From Clostridia bacterium (lineage in GTDB: Bacteria > Bacillota > Clostridia > Oscillospirales > CAG-272), in the NCBI GenBank assembly GCA_017472695.1, contig JAFUOQ010000010.1, positions 22,187 through 86,186 on the forward strand: a DNA stretch of 64,000 nucleotides, in the 5' to 3' direction. Positions 4,497 to 58,716 of the stretch are shown here, in pieces. A program made the position numbers and the translations under genes. Numbering within the stretch: position 1 is the stretch's first letter; each line of letters opens with the position of its first letter. The notes beneath the pieces are model-generated. The model had not been told where the DNA came from, searched no databases, and saw only the letters and a program-made list of their open reading frames with translations.

Positions 4497-6806
4497 TTAT
4501 TCAAAAAGAATAACTATAACGCTTGTATCATCATTTGATTTATTATGAATTTTTGCAAGCTCTAAAATCTCGTTAGCAATTTTCTCGGTGTCTTGTGACT
4601 CTGTTTCCATCAGATAATTGTTTAGCCAATGGGTGTCACCCTTGCCGGATGCCACACCATCACTTAACATAACGCAAATATCCCCCTTTTCAAAATAGAA
4701 CGAGAGTCTTTCTGCATCTAGGCTTCTCATAATTCCGATAGGTGCAGTTTTGGAAAGGAGCTTAAATACCTTTTCGCCTCGTTTAATAAACGATGGAGAT
4801 GCGCCACTCTTTAAAAAGCTTGCACCCCTGCCGATAAGGTCAATTTCTAATAGGTCAACACTTGACGAGCACTCCATATTTTTTGAGCGCACAAAGTTAT
4901 TAAGGATAGAGAGGGCAACCTCCTTTTCACTTGAAACCTTTAATATTTTTTCAAGGAAGCTGGTACACATTTCCGAGGTTAATCGCGCCTCGTCACCTGT
5001 GCCCATACCGTCGCAAATTAAGAAGTATTCCTTATCATTTATTCCCTTAAAGGTTATAACGCTATCTCCGTTTGGCTCCTTGCCGGCAGAGAGGGATTTT
5101 ATGGTGCTTTTTGTTTTATATGCGGCTGTGCCATTTATTTCAAGAGAGTAGTGTCCTAAATGCTCGCTAATAATTGGACTTTCTAAAGGAATACCAAGCT
5201 CGCTTTCTAATTTTGCGCGTAGCTCCTCCTTTGTACAGCCTGTCCTTTTTGTGTCAACGCCTGTTGCTATAATATGCTTTTTAGCCCCACCCTTGACCTC
5301 AATTTTTTCATAAACAAGACCAAGCGAGGAGGCAACACGCATAGCTGTGTCGCAATACCTTGAATTTTCCTCGTCGTTTTCCTCGTTTCCTGCAAAAATT
5401 GCATTTAGCATTTTGGAGGTCAATTCAAAATTGCTTGCGCTAATGCTTAAACGGTCGTTTTTAATGCTATCTCTCACTATATTTTTTGATTTTTTAGAAA
5501 TGTCCTCGGTGATTTTTTCGACGTTTGGACAACGGTGTATAAACTTTTCCTCAAGTGCGCGATATTCTACCTCGTTTTTTAAAAGTGCCTCGTCGCTCAT
5601 TTTTAAAATGTTTGTTTTTGTCGTTTCAACATCACGCGTCCAGCATATTTCGTTTTTTGGACAGGAGTAGCAATAGCCCTCGCATACCTCAAAGCACATT
5701 TTTTCAAAGCCCTTTCTTGTTGGATTTTTTGTTTTGCTTGCAATCTCGTAAAGCATTTTTGAAATATCCTCAAACGATTCAGACATATTCTTTAGGCTTG
5801 TTCTCGTTTTTTCGTCTTGTCGTTCGAGCACTATTTCGCTAACTGTTTTTGATTTGCTTTCAAGCCTTAAAAATGAAGGGCGTGGCAAAAGCTCAAATCT
5901 CAAGACAGGATACATAATGAGTGAAGCACCCAGAATTTCTGGTGCTAAATATGCTATTGCCTCGTATCCGCTTGTGAAAATTCCGTATCCCATAACCACG
6001 ATAAAAGCGCACATAATGGCAAGATATGAGGATAATTTAAAAATAAGCCCTGCCACAATTCCCCCAAGTGCAAAAACAGGAGCAAAGGTGACATTAGCGC
6101 AAAGCCCTAAAATAGCGCCCAAGGTGGCAGATGCACCAAGCGAAAGATTTTTAGATGCGTACAAAACCAGCGCATAGGAAATGACTATTGAAAAATCAAT
6201 ACCACCAATTTCTTTGCCTCTTAAAAGATATATAATAGCAAACGCGAAGGTGCAAAAGGAAATTAAATATCCCTTGTCACGCTTGCCCTCAAAGGCACCG
6301 GAAAAGCCGTAGGAAATAAGGGGCGAAATAGCAGAGAAGAAAACAAGTGCGAAAATGTCATAAAACATATATCCATTTACAATTACATAATAAATCCCAA
6401 CGCCAAAGGAAACAGCCAAGGAAATAAAAATACGTGCGCTGATGTTTTCTTCAAACAAGCCATTGAAAATATTTCGGTGCTGGCGCTGATCGAGTAGTGG
6501 TGCACCCTCGTTTTCTGGCTTTTTAATTAAAGAGGCAATAAGCCTTAAAACTAAAATTACCGATAATGCAATGATATAAACGAGGTCGCTATCCATAAAA
6601 AAGAAAACAGATAAAATAGCGCCCGCGTATGCAAAAATTGTGTATTTTGTAGTTGCACACAAAAGCGCAATCCCAAAGGGATAAATTCCAAGGGCAAAGC
6701 GCAACGGGGTTAAGAAAAAGCCCAGAGCAAAGCAGAGGCACTCCCATAAAACCATTTTAACCTCGTTTGTTAATTTAATCTTTTTAAGTATGTTTATTTT
6801 TTGCAT
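4497..6806 (-). CDS. spoIIE: Stage II sporulation protein E (PP2C-type phosphatase with polytopic N-terminus)
   Basis: 769 aa with about 10 N-terminal TM helices. C-terminal PP2C block (FLICDGMGTGDEA ... MLSDGV ... NDDTSVIV). Confidence 0.85.
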   Translation of the reverse strand: MQKINILKKIKLTNEVKMVLWECLCFALGFFLTPLRFALGIYPFGIALLCATTKYTIFAYAGAILSVFFFMDSDLVYIIALSVILVLRLIASLIKKPENEGAPLLDQRQHRNIFNGLFEENISARIFISLAVSFGVGIYYVIVNGYMFYDIFALVFFSAISPLISYGFSGAFEGKRDKGYLISFCTFAFAIIYLLRGKEIGGIDFSIVISYALVLYASKNLSLGASATLGAILGLCANVTFAPVFALGGIVAGLIFKLSSYLAIMCAFIVVMGYGIFTSGYEAIAYLAPEILGASLIMYPVLRFELLPRPSFLRLESKSKTVSEIVLERQDEKTRTSLKNMSESFEDISKMLYEIASKTKNPTRKGFEKMCFEVCEGYCYSCPKNEICWTRDVETTKTNILKMSDEALLKNEVEYRALEEKFIHRCPNVEKITEDISKKSKNIVRDSIKNDRLSISASNFELTSKMLNAIFAGNEENDEENSRYCDTAMRVASSLGLVYEKIEVKGGAKKHIIATGVDTKRTGCTKEELRAKLESELGIPLESPIISEHLGHYSLEINGTAAYKTKSTIKSLSAGKEPNGDSVITFKGINDKEYFLICDGMGTGDEARLTSEMCTSFLEKILKVSSEKEVALSILNNFVRSKNMECSSSVDLLEIDLIGRGASFLKSGASPSFIKRGEKVFKLLSKTAPIGIMRSLDAERLSFYFEKGDICVMLSDGVASGKGDTHWLNNYLMETESQDTEKIANEILELAKIHNKSNDDTSVIVILFE

Positions 6807-7562: not shown

Positions 7563-8153
7563 ATGGAAAAAATCAGTTGGCGCGGTGGGGCTTTGGTTGC
7601 TCCTGTCCCTGCTGTTATGGTGTCACTTGGAGATATGGAAAGGTCGAATATAATTACTGTTGCGTGGTGTGGTATTACTAATACTGTTCCACCAAAAACA
7701 TATATTTCCGTTCGTCCCGAAAGGCATTCATATAATATACTAAAGGAAAGAAAGGAATTTGTTATAAATCTGACACCTGCTAATTTAACTAAAAAAGCAG
7801 ACTTTTGTGGAATGTACACAGGCAGAAGGATTGACAAATTCAAGGAGTGTGGCTTTACAAAGGAAAAGGCGACAAAAATAGATGCCCCAATGATAGGGGA
7901 GTGCCCAATTTCAATAGAGTGTAGGGTTACTGATATAATCAAGCTCGGCTCACACGATATGTTCCTTGCCGACATTTTGGCAGTCAATGTTGAAAAAGCA
8001 CTTTTAGAGGGCAACAAGCTTTGTATAAATCGCGCACACCTATGTGCATTTGCTCACGGTGAGTATTATAAATTAGGCGAAAGAATAGGCAAATTTGGAT
8101 TTTCAGTAAAAAAGAAAAAACCTATAAACAAAAAGCAATCCCCCACCTACTAA
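7563..8153 (+). CDS. Flavin reductase-like FMN-binding protein; C-terminus rewritten by repeat insertion
   Basis: 196 aa. Split-barrel flavin reductase-like N-terminus (NIITVAWCGITNTVPPKTYISVRPERHSY..EFVINL). The last 10 codons are encoded by an inserted element (8123-8153). Confidence 0.7.
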   Translation: MEKISWRGGALVAPVPAVMVSLGDMERSNIITVAWCGITNTVPPKTYISVRPERHSYNILKERKEFVINLTPANLTKKADFCGMYTGRRIDKFKECGFTKEKATKIDAPMIGECPISIECRVTDIIKLGSHDMFLADILAVNVEKALLEGNKLCINRAHLCAFAHGEYYKLGERIGKFGFSVKKKKPINKKQSPTY

Positions 8154-8231
8154 CGTAGGAGCCCCCTTTGCACAAGGGAGCCAAGGCGAAAGAATAGGCA
8201 AATTTGGATTTTCAGTAAAAAAGAAAAAACC
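8075..8231 (+). repeat. 61-bp double-hairpin element (8123-8183) flanked by a perfect ~48-bp direct duplication of the host CDS 3' end (8075-8122 and 8184-8231)
   Basis: AGGCGAAAGAATAGGCAAATTTGGATTTTCAGTAAAAAAGAAAAAACC occurs twice. Between the copies lies TATAAACAAAAAG-CAATCCC-CCACCTAC TAAC GTAGG-AGCCCCCTTTGCACAAGGGAGCCA. Reading through the second copy gives an alternative end ..KKKKPQQKKK-TAA at 8250. Confidence 0.9.
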
Positions 8232-8255
8232 ACAACAAAAGAAAAAATAAAATAA

Positions 8256-8365
8256 GCCTTCTCCAGTGGGCGATTCCCCTGCGAGGGGAAATGTCGCAAT
8301 GCGACAAAAGGGTTGCCGTCCTGCAAGGAAAGGTGGATTTTGCAAAGCAAAAGACGGATGAGGTG
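8256..8365. repeat. REP-like hairpin modules (includes module H)
   Basis: TTCCCCT-GCG-AGGGGAA at 8274-8290. TGTCGCA-A-TGCGACA at 8292-8306. GGTGGATTTTGCAAAGCAAAAGACGGATGAGG at 8332-8363 matches 21787-21815. Confidence 0.8.
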
Positions 8366-8404
8366 TCTTGTCCGTTAAAAATAATAAACAAGGAGAAAAC
8401 AAAA

Positions 8405-9058
8405 ATGATTTTTCAAAATGGAGAAACAATAGTATTTGCAGGAGATTCAGTTACTGACTGTGGTAGAAAGCGCCCATATGGTATGGGACTTTGGGAGGGA
8501 CTTGGCAACGGATACGTTCGTATGGTTGATACAAGCCTTGCAATTGACTATCCCGAAAGAATGCTTCGCATTATAAACGTAGGTGAGAGCGGTGCTGCCA
8601 GCAAGGACATGCTTGCACATTGGGAGCAAAATGTTGAAAAGTGCAATCCTGACTGGGTGTTTGTTATGATAGGCGCAAATGACGTTTGGCGCCAATTTGA
8701 TGAGCCAAATCTTGATAATAGTCTTTTAATGCCCGACTGCTATCGCGCAAACTTAGAGGCTGTTTGTGAAAGAACACTTCCAAACGTAAAGGGTATGTTT
8801 ATTATCAGCCCATTCTATATGGAAGCAAACGATAACGACCCAATGAAAAAGCGTATGGTAGAGTACGCAGGTATCTGTAAAGAAGTAGTAGAAAAGTACG
8901 CAGAGAAATACAACATTAAATACATAGACGTACAAGAGGACTTCGATAACCACCTAAAATATCGCTATCCATCATATATCTCATGGGATAGAGTTCATCC
9001 AAACTGGGTGGGTGGAATGATGATTGCACGTAAGATTTTAAAGGCAATAGAGGCATAA
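8405..9058 (+). CDS. SGNH/GDSL-family hydrolase
   Basis: ATG at 8405 follows AAGGAGAAAAC. GDS block (VFAGDSVTDCG) and C-terminal DRVHPN block. The listed upstream extension (8291-8404) only translates repeat modules. Confidence 0.75.
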   Translation: MIFQNGETIVFAGDSVTDCGRKRPYGMGLWEGLGNGYVRMVDTSLAIDYPERMLRIINVGESGAASKDMLAHWEQNVEKCNPDWVFVMIGANDVWRQFDEPNLDNSLLMPDCYRANLEAVCERTLPNVKGMFIISPFYMEANDNDPMKKRMVEYAGICKEVVEKYAEKYNIKYIDVQEDFDNHLKYRYPSYISWDRVHPNWVGGMMIARKILKAIEA

Positions 9059-21515: not shown

Positions 21516-21544
21516 AAAAATCCCCGAGCAATCGGGGATTTTTT
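21516..21544 (+). terminator. Intrinsic terminator fused to palindromic repeat unit
   Basis: TCCCCG-AGCAAT-CGGGGA hairpin followed by TTTTTT. Confidence 0.85.
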
Positions 21545-21950
21545 AGATCCTTCGACTCGCATTCGCTCGCTCAGGATGACGTAGCTTTTGCGCTTCACAA
21601 CGTCATTCCGAGCTTGTCGAGGAATCTATTAGCAGGAGGATTTAAAATTGTAGAGGAAGGGCTTGCTCCTCCCGAAAAATAAAGGATGAAGCAAACGGGA
21701 GGATGATATCCTCCCCTACATAGAACAATATTGATACATCGTAGGGGACACATTGACACTCAAAAACTGCCTCCATCCTTGAGGGAGGTGGATTTTGCGG
21801 AGCAAAAGACGGAAGGAGTATCGTTAGTGGAAAGCGTACAAGGGAGCGTAGCGAGTCGTAGGCAATCTGCCTCCCGAAAATATTTTTAGATCCATTCGAC
21901 TCGCTTTGCTTCGCTCAGGATGACGTAGGGGCGAACATTGTTCGTCCGCC
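21545..21950. repeat. Large REP/BIME-like cluster (modules A, B, E, F, C, H, D, G, A, I)
   Basis: Same module set as 3641-3961 but in a different order, with module H (also at 8332) inserted between C and D. It ends with GTAGGGGCGAACATTGTTCGTCCGCC, which is also present at 54663. Confidence 0.9.
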
Positions 21951-43794: not shown

Positions 43795-45501
43795 TTATTC
43801 CTCGTCGTCCTTTGCCTTTGAAGACTTAACGATAACTGAGCTATCAGCCTCGAGAGCCTTAACAAGCTTGCGAGCGAGAAGGTCCTCTGTTTCTGCATAT
43901 GGATATTCAGCCACATAGTCAACCTTTTTAGCCTTTGGATCTGGCTCAATACCAAATTTAGCCATTACGATATCAACGATTTCCTTTGCCTTACGTAGAC
44001 CAAGACCACTCTTAATCTTTAGGAGCATTGGAACCTCTGCGAAAATCTTTGCATCGATAGCATCGTGGTGGTATTTTGACTTGTCAAATTCTTCTGGATT
44101 AAGTGCGCAGTATACACAAACAGTCTTACCACGGAGCTTAATCTTAAAGAGCTGATCCCTACCTCTGTTGTAGCTATCAAACTTCCAGCTAATCTTCGAT
44201 TTAGTACCCTTATATGAAAGAATATGGTTCTTCAATTGACTGTAGTAATCCTTAACTGTTTCGTCACTTTGGATTAGGTTAGCAGTAAAGCTACGGCTGT
44301 ACTTGATTTCAATCTTGTTACCTTCGTTATCAAAGTATGTAGGAATGATAGTAGGAACAACCTCGCCAACCTCTTCAACAACAGTTTCCTCAACTGGAGC
44401 ATCGTCCTCAACGATAGGAGCAACCTCGTCAGCTACATCCTCAACAACTGCCTCTTCAACAGCTACGTCCTCAACAGCTGCTTCCTCAACAACTGTTTCT
44501 TCAACAGCTACGTCTTCAGCAACTGTTTCTTCAACAGCTACGTCTTCAGCAACTGTTTCTTCGGTAGCCTTTGGCATTGGCTCTTCAATGATTTCCTCTT
44601 GAATGTATACCTCGGTAGCTTCAACAGGAGCTTCGGTTTCATCTTCAACGGCAGGAGCAACCTCGTCAGCTATCTCTTCGTTATTTTCAATAGCGGAGTA
44701 AAGTTGAATTGTAAATACGGAATCTGTATCGCCCCTTTCGATAATAGCCTCACCGTTTGGCTCTACACCCCAACCAACAAAGGATTGGTTACCTGCGTAG
44801 GTGTCTGGTGCACAAAGGTTAACATAATGAGATTCCTTGTAGATGAATTTATCTGTGTTACTGTCAAGGAAGAGAAGCTCAACAACAGCAGTTTCATTAA
44901 ATTCCTCGTTGCTTGGCTTTGCGTTTTCGTCAAAAATAGGATATAGATTAATAGCAAATACTGCGCTAACCTCGTCACCCTCAAGAACAATCTCGCCACC
45001 CTTTTCAAAGCTCCATCCGCTTGCTTTTACTGGAACATCTTGGTTTTCTGGCAAAATAGCATTAATTTTAGTTGTATTAGCTTTAATGATGTTTTCACAT
45101 TCAGCATCTAAATAATTGAGCTGAACAAAAACACCCTCTGCCTTCTTCTTTGCCTCTGCAATCTCATCCTCGTCTGCCCAAACAGCATAGAGAACAACTG
45201 TGTGAGTGAGAAGAAATTCAGGCTCGGAGATAATGTTTTCACCTTCTGGATCTAGACTCCAGCCGATAAACACTCTGCCTTCCTTAATTGCTGGGCGAAC
45301 AACTGCTTTTGAGAGCCAAGGCTTTTTCTCATACTCAATTTCATAATCGCCCTCGGTGTCAACGTAAACAACTTGACAACGAATAACAGCTGCGAGAATA
45401 GCACAGATGATACAAACCGCTGCAACTATAGCGCAACCAACGACGCTAACATTGAAAATATCAAATCCAGCGCCAAAAAGAATTGTGTTTACAAATTCCA
45501 T
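43795..45501 (-). CDS. Membrane-anchored surface protein with Listeria/Bacteroides-type repeats, acidic V/E/A linker and conserved C-terminal domain
   Basis: 568 aa with an N-terminal TM. Three repeats of the F(I/V)GW..(P/E).G..I pattern. Linker VAEDVAVEETVAEDVAVEETVVEE. Confidence 0.55.
   Translation of the reverse strand: MEFVNTILFGAGFDIFNVSVVGCAIVAAVCIICAILAAVIRCQVVYVDTEGDYEIEYEKKPWLSKAVVRPAIKEGRVFIGWSLDPEGENIISEPEFLLTHTVVLYAVWADEDEIAEAKKKAEGVFVQLNYLDAECENIIKANTTKINAILPENQDVPVKASGWSFEKGGEIVLEGDEVSAVFAINLYPIFDENAKPSNEEFNETAVVELLFLDSNTDKFIYKESHYVNLCAPDTYAGNQSFVGWGVEPNGEAIIERGDTDSVFTIQLYSAIENNEEIADEVAPAVEDETEAPVEATEVYIQEEIIEEPMPKATEETVAEDVAVEETVAEDVAVEETVVEEAAVEDVAVEEAVVEDVADEVAPIVEDDAPVEETVVEEVGEVVPTIIPTYFDNEGNKIEIKYSRSFTANLIQSDETVKDYYSQLKNHILSYKGTKSKISWKFDSYNRGRDQLFKIKLRGKTVCVYCALNPEEFDKSKYHHDAIDAKIFAEVPMLLKIKSGLGLRKAKEIVDIVMAKFGIEPDPKAKKVDYVAEYPYAETEDLLARKLVKALEADSSVIVKSSKAKDDEE
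44431..44565 (-). repeat. In-frame 30-bp tandem repeat encoding the acidic linker
   Basis: AACTGTTTCTTCAACAGCTACGTCTTCAGC is perfect at 44491-44520 and 44521-44550. Degenerate copies lie on both sides. Confidence 0.85.
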
Positions 45502-55379: not shown

Positions 55380-55550
55380 GGGCAAAGCCCATACCCCTAA
55401 AGATGCACGAGCCCTGAGGCTCCCTCCGGGAGGGAGCTGGCGCCGTAGGCGACTGAGGGAGAGCGCGTTACAATGAAGTTAGCGCAAAACTAAAGTCACG
55501 CAGGCTCCTTCCACCGCTAACGCGGTCCCCCTCCCTCTCGGAGGGAGGCT
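55380..55550. repeat. GC-rich hairpin repeat cluster overlapping the DUF559 gene 3' end
   Basis: Perfect palindrome GCTCCCTCC-G-GGAGGGAGC at 55419-55437. GTAGGCGACTGAGGGAGAGCG at 55444. CCTCCCTCTCGGAGGGAGG at 55528-55548, inside the last 14 codons of the DUF559 ORF. Confidence 0.8.
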
Positions 55551-55894
55551 TTTACGGTGGCATCAATATACTCGCAGACACCCCGAAAATTCGTGTTGAT
55601 TTGTTGGTTTGTAAACCGCAAGATTTTCAGATCATACCCTTCAAGTATTTCCGTGCGGAATTCATCCTTTTGCCTGCCTTCTTCGGTATAATGCTGTGAC
55701 CCATCAATTTCTATGATTAGTTTGGCTTTGTGACAGTAAAAATCCGCAATAAAATTGTCTATGGCTTTTTGCCTTTGAAATCTAATTTCATATTTTGATA
55801 GGAAATCGTACCACAAATGATTTTCCTGCGGTGTTGCATTTTTACGAAGATTTCTTGCAAGAGTAATATTCTTTTCGTTGTAATCCAGCGACAT
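55517..55894 (-). CDS. DUF559 (Vsr-like endonuclease fold) domain protein
   Basis: 125 aa. ARNLRKNATPQENHLWYDFL..RFQRQKAIDNFIADFYCHKAKLIIEIDGSQH pattern typical of DUF559. The C-terminal tail (ASLREGGGPR) is encoded by a repeat hairpin. Confidence 0.75.
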   Translation of the reverse strand: MSLDYNEKNITLARNLRKNATPQENHLWYDFLSKYEIRFQRQKAIDNFIADFYCHKAKLIIEIDGSQHYTEEGRQKDEFRTEILEGYDLKILRFTNQQINTNFRGVCEYIDATVKASLREGGGPR

Positions 55895-55953: not shown

Positions 55954-56153
55954 AGTTATATTCCGACTGCGTCGGAGTGATATTATCGCTTACGCAATAG
56001 TGATATTGAAGCCTTACGGCTTCAGTGATATTTTATTCGCCTTCAAAACTCGCGAAGCGAATACCACTCGGCGCAAGCCGAATATCACTGCGAAGCAATA
56101 TCACTCGCCGCAAGGCGAATAAAACTGCCCAACTTCCTTATGAGAAGTTGGGC
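55954..56153. repeat. Mirror-symmetric array of eight 9-mer boxes (AGTGATATT x4 then AATATCACT x4) separated by mini-hairpins
   Basis: Left boxes at 55954 (AGTTATATT), 55976, 55999 and 56024. Right boxes at 56060 (AATACCACT), 56081, 56097 and 56118 (AATAAAACT). The hairpin spacers are:
- CCGAC-TGC-GTCGG
- GAAGCC-TTAC-GGCTTC
- CGGC-GCAA-GCCG
- GC-GAA-GC
- CGCC-GCAA-GGCG
- final GCCCAACTTC-N7-GAAGTTGGGC at 56127-56153. Confidence 0.85.
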
Positions 56154-56172
56154 AAACGAGTCTCTTTTTTTA

Positions 56173-56424
56173 TTATTTAACAGTAACAACCTTATAGTCT
56201 TTCCATCCTTAAAGTCTTAAGCCTCCTTTGTGCAAAGGGAGGTGGGTTGCGATAGCAACTCGGAGGGATTGATTATTTAACTACTACAGATACCTTGTGT
56301 GTCTTTCGATCCTTAAAGTCTTAAGCCTCCTTTGTGCAAAGGGAGGTGGGTTGCGATAGCAACTCGGAGGGATTGATTATTTAACTACTACAGATACCTT
56401 GTGTGTCTTTCCATCCTTAAAGTC
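56173..56424 (-). repeat. 104-bp tandem unit: 48-bp copy of the GH94-like CDS 3' end + 56-bp double-hairpin element; 2 units plus a diverged third CDS-end copy
   Basis: CDS-end copies at 56377-56424 (functional), 56273-56320 (1 mismatch) and 56173-56216 (diverged, 4 nt shorter). Identical elements at 56321-56376 and 56217-56272 (TTAAGCCTCCTTTGTGCAAAGGGAGGTGGGTTGCGATAGCAACTCGGAGGGATTGA). Confidence 0.9.
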
Positions 56425-58716
56425 AGGAACGATAGTGCCATCAATTGCTTTTCCATCAACAGTAATATCAAGAGCGTCAGCCTTATATTTGCCGTTTGGA
56501 TTTGAAATTGAAATTTCGTATGTAGCACCACGGAACTCACGTGTCATTGATGCCTTATCAAATGGAAGATGTGGGTCAACTTGAAGTCCCTCATATGTTG
56601 GACGAAGACCAACAAGATAGTTTTCCATAGTGTTTGTGTACCAAGCAACAGAGCCTGTAATCCAGCTGTATTCCATTTGATAAGCACTGTTTTTGTGCTC
56701 TGGACCAAAGTAACAGTTAGAGAACATATATGGTAGGCACTTGTTTTTAATTTCTGTATTATCGCCGATGATGTAGCCAGGTGCAATCTTCTTAAATAGC
56801 TCATAAGCCAGGTCAGCCTTGCCGTACTTAAGAAGTCCTAGAATCATCCAAATATTTGTGTGCGAGTAGATTGTTCCGTTTTCGCAAATACCTGGCTCCA
56901 TAGAGGAGATACGACCGATGGTTGGGTCGAATTCCTTATAGGAAGGAGTGAGTAGTAGGTAACCAACAGGAGTTGCCATATGCTCATTCATAGCATTAAT
57001 AATTGTATTAGCGCGTTCTTCAGATGCAACACCGGAAATAAGTGACCAGCATTGTGGCTCCATAAACATCTTTGCATACTTGTTTTCCTTTGAGCCAAGA
57101 GGTGAGCCGTTGTCTGTGTAACAGCGTCTGTACCATTCGCCATCCCAAGCATTATCGTTGATAGCTGTTTTTATAGCCTCTCTACGTGCAAGATAGTTTT
57201 GCTCCTTTTCGGGCATACCAAGGAATTTAGCAAGCTCAGCCATTTCAAGTAGTGCTTGAGCATAAGCGATAGAGAGCCATACACTCTCTCCGCGACCTTC
57301 CTTACCAACGCCGGTTAGTGAGTCATTCCAGTCACCAAACTTGATAAGAAGAAGGTTGTGCTCGCCCTTGTTTGATTCTAGGAAGTCAAGGGCTCTGTCC
57401 ATATGACCAAGAACAGTAGCCTCGCCCTCGTCTCTAAATGGATATACCTCATTTAGGAACTCAACATCGCCTGTCTCGCGGAGATATGCGGTCAATGTAA
57501 ACTCAAGCCAAAGAGCAGAGTCGGAGTATGCCTTTGTATCAACCGGGTTCCAACCACGAACAGCCATACCACTTGCGTATTGGTTTTGAATAGCCTCCTT
57601 TAGAATTTGCTTTGTTCTTTCATTCTTGAAGGAAACAACACCGAAGCCATGTTGAACAATATCGCGATAACCATTATAACCCCAACGGCACCAGGTAGCA
57701 CCAAAGTGTGTTGCGTGCTTGCCCCAGAAGTTGATAAGACGGTCAAAATGCTCGTCATTAGTTGTAATGTGGTTCTTTGAATATAAGTCCTTATAGTATT
57801 TTTTTGTAGCCTCAAAGTACTCGTCTTGTGTGCCGAGGTATTTTTCAGCCATTTTTACGCTATCGTCCTCACATTCGCCTGCACCTAAGATGAGTGAAAT
57901 ATCCTTGTTCTCACCTGCATCAAGTGTAATATCAAAGCGAAGAGAGCAGATTGTAGCATTTGCAGAGCCGATGGAGTTGTAGCTAACGCCATCGCGAACT
58001 ACTTGAGGAGATGCGATTGTGCCGTATTCACCAATAAATACGTTTTGGCAGCCCTCGCTACCTGTAATCTTTTCGTCAGCAACCATAAATGCAGTTAGGT
58101 AGTTGTGAGGCTTAATGAATGGGTGCTTGTTCATATAGAAGGTGTTTCTTCCCTCGTCAAAGCGAGTGCCACGATACATAGTGTCGCCATAGCTATCGAA
58201 GCCCCATTTGAATTTGAATTGGATTTGGCTATATGTAAAGATGGAGTAGGAGCGCTTCTTTGAGCCTTCGTTCTTTACTGATAATTTCCAAATTTCGCAA
58301 GCATCGTTGCCGGTTGGCACAAATAGACGCAATTTTGCCATAGTGTCACAGGTTTTATTCTCAACTATTGTGTAGCCAAGACCTTGTGTACATTTGTAGC
58401 TTTGGTATGGGTGGCAAACAGGCTCCCAGTTGAGAGTCCAAAATTCGCCAGTTTCGTTGTCACGAATAAAAACAAGGCGGTTGTAAAGGTGGTTCTTGCC
58501 AAAAACATCGTAGTCGCAGATACGACCAACGCCTGTGTAAAGCTGAATGCCCTCCGTGCCGTTGATTTGGTAGTCGAAGCAGCCTATACCCGTTTGGTGA
58601 ACATTTGCATAGCACGCATCGTTAAATAAAAAGTTGTCAAATGGACGAGGAGTGTTAGGGGATGTAATTATAAACTCGTCGCCACTTTCGTTAAAATAAC
58701 CGTATTTGTATTCCAT
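56377..58716 (-). CDS. GH94-like glycoside phosphorylase (cellobiose/chitobiose phosphorylase family)
   Basis: 779 aa. (alpha/alpha)6-type catalytic region with KFGDWNDSL and EPGICENGTIYSHTN blocks, resembling GH94 signatures. Confidence 0.6.
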   Translation of the reverse strand: MEYKYGYFNESGDEFIITSPNTPRPFDNFLFNDACYANVHQTGIGCFDYQINGTEGIQLYTGVGRICDYDVFGKNHLYNRLVFIRDNETGEFWTLNWEPVCHPYQSYKCTQGLGYTIVENKTCDTMAKLRLFVPTGNDACEIWKLSVKNEGSKKRSYSIFTYSQIQFKFKWGFDSYGDTMYRGTRFDEGRNTFYMNKHPFIKPHNYLTAFMVADEKITGSEGCQNVFIGEYGTIASPQVVRDGVSYNSIGSANATICSLRFDITLDAGENKDISLILGAGECEDDSVKMAEKYLGTQDEYFEATKKYYKDLYSKNHITTNDEHFDRLINFWGKHATHFGATWCRWGYNGYRDIVQHGFGVVSFKNERTKQILKEAIQNQYASGMAVRGWNPVDTKAYSDSALWLEFTLTAYLRETGDVEFLNEVYPFRDEGEATVLGHMDRALDFLESNKGEHNLLLIKFGDWNDSLTGVGKEGRGESVWLSIAYAQALLEMAELAKFLGMPEKEQNYLARREAIKTAINDNAWDGEWYRRCYTDNGSPLGSKENKYAKMFMEPQCWSLISGVASEERANTIINAMNEHMATPVGYLLLTPSYKEFDPTIGRISSMEPGICENGTIYSHTNIWMILGLLKYGKADLAYELFKKIAPGYIIGDNTEIKNKCLPYMFSNCYFGPEHKNSAYQMEYSWITGSVAWYTNTMENYLVGLRPTYEGLQVDPHLPFDKASMTREFRGATYEISISNPNGKYKADALDITVDGKAIDGTIVPDFKDGKTHKVSVVVK

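Follow-up and report, generated by a model that had tools for sequence, protein, structure and literature searches.

Short structured extragenic repeats of the REP/RAYT type (REPtrons, REPINs) lie at gene ends in high copy number and often head-to-head, show compensatory variation in their stems, flank the gene of a small single-domain nuclease with inverted copies, and, in their ordinary copies, show no target duplication. In all of these respects they resemble element E, a 47-nt hairpin repeat that we describe here from the end of a flavin reductase gene in a 64,000-nt stretch of Clostridia bacterium DNA (contig JAFUOQ010000010.1 of assembly GCA_017472695.1, positions 22,187 to 86,186; hereafter, the window). 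The two systems also differ. Where REP copies flank the gene of a Y1 HUH transposase, E copies flank that of a DUF559/Vsr-like PD-(D/E)XK nuclease; E folds into two hairpins behind a conserved CAATCC at its 5′ end, whereas REP has GTAG and one palindrome; and E at this locus, like about eight other copies, is bracketed by duplications of 17–87 bp.

Islands and prophages that integrate into gene 3′ ends (tRNA, tmRNA and rlmH-type att sites) share another part of the picture: the gene 3′ end is repeated on both sides, the proximal copy keeps the gene intact, the displaced end is left as a relic, and the proximal and distal copies can be different alleles. In contrast to these, the ‘cargo’ of E is 47 nt without an integrase, and E occurs at many unrelated genes and intergenic sites with no fixed att core. 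In Rickettsia RPE, Neisseria Correia and pneumococcal BOX, RUP and SPRITE repeats, as in E, a non-coding repeat joins an open reading frame (ORF) and supplies C-terminal residues and the stop codon. Target duplications at these repeats are short where they occur at all, and none of the repeats is known to leave the end of a gene in duplicate; a further difference is that the coding change at E is a secondary stop loss. Long, variable target duplications that adjoin a copied segment are found with target-primed reverse transcription (as in non-long-terminal-repeat elements and short interspersed elements) and with microhomology-mediated break-induced replication (PMC2621351), but E has no reverse transcriptase, poly(A) tail or 5′ truncation, and its ends are precise.

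The duplicated end of the flavin reductase gene

As now read, the flavin reductase coding sequence spans 7563–8153 of the forward strand (ORF list; 196 amino acids; Pfam PF01613; the identical protein, P0001, is found on 7 contigs). It ends ..KKKKPINKKQSPTY, and its stop codon, TAA at 8151–8153, lies in the loop of the hairpin CCTAC-TAAC-GTAGG. A repeat search of the window identified a 65-nt direct repeat with 88% identity at this gene end (8075–8139 and 8184–8248). Its first 48 nt (8075–8122 and 8184–8231) are identical, with 61 nt between the perfect parts, exactly the arrangement described in the initial annotation; the 48-bp repeat around E is thereby confirmed as a real feature. Within the upstream copy (A; 8075–8135, forward strand), positions 8123–8135 are the end of a PINKK-type allele that has lost its stop codon. 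Element E follows at 8136–8182, in the orientation of the host gene as the annotation had noted. It begins with CAATCC, continues with a first hairpin (8146–8150 pairing with 8155–8159, loop TAAC) and a second hairpin (8161–8181), and ends with GGGAGCC; it was delimited from its fold, from a covariance-model match of 52.8 bits and from the family alignment with its covariation. The last six codons of the gene (QSPTY and the stop) are supplied by E. The downstream relic copy (B; 8184–8256, forward strand) is identical to A at 8184–8231, then translates as ..KKKKPQQKKK with TAA at 8248–8250, and includes the native post-stop AATAAG. Beyond it lies the hairpin region native to this site, and allele L185 shows this downstream sequence without E.

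We compared the tails of the closest 120 orthologues and the DNA context around 20 alleles. Most tails are lysine-rich ends such as ..KKKKPINKKK or ..KKKKPQQKKK, and element-free orthologues do end ..PQQKKK* or ..PINKKK*, as anticipated. Six of the 120 have the element-encoded tails QSPTY, QSPTH or QSSTH: the assignment of this tail to the element was sound, and the tail recurs in related lineages. The element-bearing lineages have 85–100% protein identity and occur in several independent assemblies. All element-bearing flavin reductase alleles have the right junction GGGAGCC(A/G)|(A/G)GG(C/T)GA in common, which argues for a single origin of the event. In alleles L188–L190 the upstream copy keeps its stop and reads ..AAAAAATAA-AGAAG-CAATCC, that is, TAA and AGAAG and then E. 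This places the insertion 5 nt past the stop and makes the read-through a later change in the A-rich tract; judged from these allele sequences, the QSPTY tail is a secondary read-through and not the product of insertion within the coding sequence. The proposal that E was inserted inside the coding sequence does not survive this comparison, given that all other events likewise keep the stop. Nor would the present gene simply end ..PQQKKK if the insert were taken away, since the upstream copy has a different natural allele end (PINKK-); this is not a simple fresh duplication. The 48 identical base pairs are thus the part of a gene-end duplication of about 65–74 bp, stop included, that is still, or again, identical, and the distal parts are different alleles.

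The relic ends vary by lineage and represent different natural alleles (PQQKKK*, PQRKK*, PPQRKK* and RINKNK*), and relic and active copy often differ at synonymous positions only (GAA AGA ATC versus GAG CGC ATC). Two tandem units of gene end plus E are present in L130 and L189. The element-free allele L184 combines the proximal part of the L123 upstream copy with the distal part of the L123 relic, with an identical downstream region, and looks like the expected product of a deletion between the repeats. Flavin reductase homologues P0039, P0044, P0050 and P0061 have ..KKQGEKK tails, as if the ORF ran on into the sequence (CAAGGAGAAAA) where ribosomes bind for the gene that follows, which suggests, from the protein tails, alleles with a deleted intergenic region. 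A related, weaker family member lies at 8266–8318 on the reverse strand (covariance model 20 bits, E-value about 1e-3; allele comparison). It has no flanking duplication, its site is empty in allele L185, and it appears to occupy the loop portion of a hairpin that belongs to the host sequence (CCTTCTCC-AGTGGG-AGAAGG).

The E family and its duplication loci

The 17-mer CCCTTTGCACAAGGGAG, from the second hairpin, occurs three times in the window with three or fewer mismatches, compared with 0.16 expected. The other two occurrences are in a 104-nt tandem repeat (2.2 copies, 56197–56424), and the covariance model scores the three window copies at 52.8, 60.7 and 60.7 bits, which bears out the earlier assignment of the insert to the same family as the element at 56.3 kb. 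A pattern scan of one genome per species found E at 120 or more loci, nearly all in Oscillospiraceae/Clostridia metagenome-assembled genomes (MAGs), and the family alignment and covariance model were built from 134 distinct copies. In this alignment a 5′ (A)CAATCCCTC is conserved, followed by a first hairpin in which the stem sequence is free and the pairing is kept, and by a conserved second hairpin, CTCCCTT-TGCAC-AAGGGAG. The closing pair covaries (G-C 74, C-G 57), and covariation supports both helices; double changes are seen at 6/6 pairs of helix 1, and overall 92% of cells are paired compared with 43–54% in slid controls. E is a discrete unit that runs precisely from CAATCC to GGAG(G/C)C: where the same core occurs at loci that are not orthologous, the common flank amounts to just 0–2 nt on the left and 2–5 nt on the right, and flanks so minimal establish the unit as discrete. 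Loci L193 and L066, for example, carry an identical E at two different genes.

Most copies of E follow the end of a gene, and both orientations occur (of those within 100 nt, 22 are co-oriented and 23 convergent); the left neighbour is co-oriented in 86/113 cases and the right neighbour convergent in 70/110. They often form head-to-head pairs. No Rfam family matches E at the gathering threshold, and a search of 8000–8420 at E-values of up to 10 also gave nothing credible; the sole match at the gathering threshold is Gut-1, at 56056–56127. This Gut-1 RNA match (RF01706, 56.3 bits) is in a segment of the reverse strand (56045–56128) amid 21/37-nt tandem hairpin units, between the terminator of a GH94 gene and a DUF559 gene. 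Matches of 2–12 nt flanking E, as short target duplications would leave, are no commoner than in shuffled pairs. A metagenome scan for the CACAAAGGAG variant of E returned just 49 stretches, and a single redundant locus accounts for about half of these. This variant is found in 4/12 copies from duplication events versus 2/122 otherwise, an enrichment that probably reflects the host clade and not the variant.

The second duplication locus of the window lies behind a GH94 (cellobiose-phosphorylase-like) gene on the reverse strand (56377–58716), which ends ..DFKDGKTHKVSVVVK*. The first E copy (56325–56375, 60.7 bits) starts 1 nt past the stop; it is followed, all on the same strand, by a second copy of the gene end (56272–56324, within the 104-nt tandem unit and 1 nt different from the first), by a second E (56221–56271; pattern scan and covariance model) identical to the first, and by a relic (56172–56220) in which a GH94 end of the KTHKVVVTVK* type has decayed through deletions of 1 nt and 3 nt, after which comes the native intrinsic terminator. 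The natural ends of GH94 orthologues (..KTHKVVVTVK and others) identify the relic as a gene end, and the duplication is 49–53 nt long. In L193, an 86%-identical GH94 orthologue, E occupies the corresponding position behind the stop and the relic is shorter, whereas the 94%-identical orthologues L191 and L192 have no E. Between L193 and the window, the conserved parts of E are identical and the first hairpins are entirely different. The first hairpin of L193 is identical to that of L066, and the differing first hairpins at one GH94 site could reflect either independent insertions or conversion between E copies.

Direct repeats adjoin both ends of E at about nine loci, mostly of low GC content, and the duplications are 17–87 nt in length. 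In local alignments the upstream copy ends 0–2 nt before CAATCC and the downstream copy begins 0–2 nt past GGAG(G/C)C, as copies of a target-site duplication would. This geometry holds at both window loci and at L066, L130, L189 and L144, and nearly holds at L094, L083 and L039. At L066, the end of an ABC ATPase gene (YTGAFELE*) is present in two units and in a relic whose differences are all synonymous (6/6); at L083, with the gene end ..LDYLGYLEDK*, 5–6 of 6 differences are synonymous. The event at L094 comes from the same MAG as L066, and L039 is a further event. The arrangement therefore recurs at other genes and in other genomes, as the initial annotation expected, with L066, L094, L083 and L193 as examples. 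In all gene-end duplication events E is co-oriented with the gene, starting 0–37 nt past the retained stop and immediately 5′ of the host hairpin or terminator. GC skew is positive throughout the window, though its two loci lie on opposite strands; the absence of a flip between them suggests that the orientation of E follows transcription and not replication. Events were seen in 3/26 low-GC loci compared with 1/94.

Two generalizations drawn from the window alone need revision. The first was that the two loci have the same duplication length; at about 65–74 nt (48 identical) for the flavin reductase, 49–53 nt for GH94 and 17–87 nt elsewhere, the shared 48 bp is a coincidence. The second was that a mechanism targets gene 3′ ends: most of the 120 or more copies have no duplication, and some duplications are intergenic (L139 and L182; L144 is also an intergenic case).

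Several candidate events were rejected. The direct repeat 53502/53598 proved to be a motif within one long ORF, and at L112, L004, L056, L007, L036 and L111 the flanking similarity is due solely to other nearby repeats. Another repeat family (..GATCCTTCGACTCGC..CTCAGGATGACG..) is present at 21538–21584 and 21882–21928 of the window and also downstream of the relic in L083; between the two window copies there is a weak E-like match on the reverse strand (21763–21823). At 44352–44562 there is a 15-nt (5-codon) tandem array of about 8 copies with 73–86% matches, seemingly coding sequence.

A DUF559 nuclease gene between E copies

The window encodes a DUF559 (Vsr-like PD-(D/E)XK) nuclease at 55517–55894 on the reverse strand (PF04480, 98 bits; PDB 3HRL, E-value 4e-9). 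A repeat hairpin supplies the codons of its tail, ASLREGGGPR, a detail that the initial annotation had reported correctly and that carries more weight than was supposed. At the 3′ end of the gene two E-like copies stand head-to-head (55412–55466, reverse strand, 32.8 bits; 55502–55555, forward strand, 14.9 bits; covariance model). DUF559 genes were detected by tblastn in 13/194 fetched loci. The covariance model places inverted E copies beside every DUF559 gene of 115 amino acids among them, in the loci from the pattern scan and, at weak scores, in the flavin reductase loci. The complete unit reads as the reverse complement of E from GCCTCCC to GGGATTG, then 2–3 nt, an ATG and about 115 codons, and then E from CAATCC to GGGAGCC, with the stop codon within the right-hand E. 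This arrangement is found in L120, L119, L060, L067, L063, L055 and L057, and the same unit of about 460 bp occurs in unrelated contexts (L120 versus L067). L182 is also among the loci with a DUF559 gene flanked by inverted hairpin repeats. At L063 the complete unit is itself flanked by a direct repeat of 78–87 nt that is 83% identical (5002–5079 and 5609–5686). These repeat copies read like gene ends (..ESAIVAELMKMYQELTQ* and ..QNLTS*), and neither follows a long ORF.

Nearly all of the closest 120 DUF559 homologues have a repeat-encoded tail (..VK-ASLREGGGPR). More than 6,000 homologues were found, many on contigs of less than 2 kb, and several clusters at 90% identity have from hundreds to more than 1,600 members, mostly on contigs under 2 kb. 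Cluster sizes and short contigs fit a multicopy element that breaks short-read assemblies.

Published work assigns DUF559 to the Vsr clade, where a homing endonuclease is also found (PMC3424549, PMC3239194), and DUF559 genes were enriched beside inverted repeats in a survey (PMC9881135). That endonuclease, I-Bth0305I (EDxHD, Vsr fold; PMC3239194), is comparable as a selfish nuclease of the Vsr/DUF559 fold, the mobility of which would use host repair. It differs in being multidomain, within a group I intron and directed to one cognate site, whereas the DUF559 protein described here is a bare nuclease domain of about 115 amino acids encoded between hairpin repeats. In the literature we found no description of this pairing of repeat and DUF559 nuclease, and nothing relevant on DUF559 with repeats, on Vsr with REP or on duplicated 3′ ends around repeats. 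A tblastn search for a Y1 HUH transposase (RAYT) using IS200 TnpA and Escherichia coli RAYT queries had no match in 1.2 Mb of loci, a weak negative given that RAYTs are single-copy. The arrangement of the genes makes DUF559 a candidate partner enzyme of the E family.

Origin of the duplications

Three established classes of element were compared, and the first two were rejected. The direct repeats are the 3′ end of the target gene, and the gene is kept intact, as with integrase-type elements; but there are just 61 nt between the repeats, with no tyrosine or serine integrase encoded there, and in L063 just a DUF559 gene. A diversity-generating retroelement does not fit because the differences between 8123–8139 and 8232–8248 involve all bases in both copies and those in other alleles are synonymous; no reverse transcriptase is among the five genes called at the locus (SpoIIE, YpsA, flavin reductase, GDSL lipase and D12 methyltransferase). 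For a miniature inverted-repeat transposable element, the solo copy at 8136–8182 has unlike ends (CAATCC and GGGAGCC), inverted ends being present only in head-to-head doublets elsewhere, and there is no short, fixed-length target duplication; the duplications present are long and variable.

The account that we favour, to which we give about even chances of being correct, is REP-like insertion between stop and terminator with a long staggered target duplication that was later reshaped by homologous exchange. A solo E would land in sense orientation between the flavin reductase stop and its downstream hairpin, leaving a direct duplication of the last 65–74 bp or so of the target, one copy at each end of E. 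The upstream copy would remain the working gene end and the downstream copy would become an untranslated relic before the native downstream region. Later, in some lineages including that of the window, the upstream stop was lost in the A-rich lysine tract, so that translation now ends in the loop of the first hairpin (QSPTY). The allele sequences show that recombination has since remodelled every event found: homologous exchange between strains, together with conversion or unequal crossing-over between the two copies, swapped in parts of other natural alleles, and also made the tandem arrays of gene end plus E and removed E again. The duplication could arise from nicks staggered by tens of bases, or from a strand that, once nicked and unwound, takes up a copy of E from a donor and then primes anew where the gap has its base; because the nuclease can only cut, host repair synthesis would have to do the remainder. 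We infer that the duplication arises at insertion from the geometry, from its presence around the full DUF559 unit and around intergenic copies, and from the occurrence of the same E at unrelated genes.

Several observations weigh against this account. Flanking duplications of any length are missing from about 95% of the family, including L062 and L107, which lie at separate sites in a single genome and have the same core; E can therefore move without producing a long duplication. Most events seem to stem from a single low-GC clade, and independent events are few (about 6–9). Additional bases separate repeat and E at L094, L139 and L182. The two copies of a pair usually differ, nearly always synonymously (L066, 6/6; L083, 5–6/6; L123, 6–7), and among the events found there is none with two fully identical copies; such synonymous differences imply either that the relic served another lineage as a functional gene end not long ago or that conversion renews it. 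The link between DUF559 and E is one of position. PD-(D/E)XK nucleases lack strand-transfer activity, and duplications of 50–90 bp, several-fold longer than any known for bacterial elements, are not known to result from any chemistry of bacterial transposition.

The allelic differences are what a homology-facilitated, illegitimate recombination between alleles would leave, a contender that we take seriously while judging it unlikely. DNA from a related strain, with E already behind the orthologous gene, would recombine within the gene, and its free end past the second hairpin would join tens of bases upstream, setting the donor gene end and E before the end of the recipient. Upstream and downstream copies are indeed different natural alleles with synonymous-only differences, the L066 relic differs from the active copy from the fourth base onward, and intergenic regions differ so strongly between alleles that a homologous right arm would often be missing; ends 2–5 nt past the second hairpin could be favoured break points. 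Such joining nevertheless requires donor ends within 0–2 nt of the 3′ end of E in at least six events, and leaves unexplained the intergenic duplications (L139 and L182), the duplication around the whole DUF559 unit (L063) and the same E at unrelated genes (L066 versus L193). The one junction common to all flavin reductase alleles implies that the allele mixtures postdate the event, and nearly all E copies seen in the clade have the arrangement, which would be unexpected for a rare by-product. We think it improbable that hairpins provoked replication slippage or template switching independently of mobility, duplicating the gene end around a pre-existing E and, by repetition, producing arrays. 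Hairpins are known to stall replication, the duplication lengths are variable and tandem arrays of gene end plus E are frequent (56.2–56.4 kb in the window, L066, L130, L189 and L144). Tandem duplication of this kind, however, gives an E, the gene end, another E and then the downstream sequence, and never the final E-less gene end running into native downstream sequence that is seen at every locus; the arrays are better accounted for by unequal crossing-over between pre-existing repeats.

A programmed arrangement, in which duplicated ends and E serve as a C-terminus switch or as a regulatory 3′ untranslated region controlling the fate of the mRNA, seems to us very improbable. The 48 identical base pairs, 109 bp apart, can recombine to restore ..PQQKKK*, as L184 might illustrate, and element-encoded tails persist in several lineages; but the alternative C termini are trivial variants of a variable lysine-rich tail, deletion is one-way, the GH94 relic decays, no recombinase is nearby and the genes that host E (flavin reductase, GH94, ABC ATPase and a membrane protein) bear no relation to one another. 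We give almost no credence to an assembly artefact in which two strain variants were collapsed. The assembly is of the metagenome type, and PINKK and PQQKKK ends both occur in the population, yet the junction of the element with AGG(C/T)GA needs spanning reads, and several studies using several assemblers recovered the same structure in differing sequences, as is also the case at other genes.

Building on insertion with a long target duplication, we propose more tentatively, as a possibility well short of probable, that E and DUF559 constitute an undescribed mobile system of repeat and nuclease: an analogue of REP/RAYT that would use a Vsr-like nicking nuclease instead of an HUH transposase. 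In some hosts it would insert by nicking, unwinding, copying and re-priming, in sense orientation between stop and terminator and with duplications of 50–90 bp, and would be reversible by homologous deletion. If so, an abundant, unnamed repeat family of gut and rumen Clostridia, which puts false peptide tails into MAG annotations and interrupts assemblies, would gain defined ends, a structure and a candidate enzyme. Long gene-end duplications around a small element create false 3′ gene fragments, altered C termini and recombination-prone direct repeats, and would be a new signature for annotation pipelines; through junction sequencing, they would also provide a natural assay for cut-only, repair-dependent insertion. 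DUF559, a large family of unknown function, would gain a role that can be put to the test, that of the nuclease partnering a hairpin repeat, and the pair would represent a second, independent solution to the REP/RAYT lifestyle.

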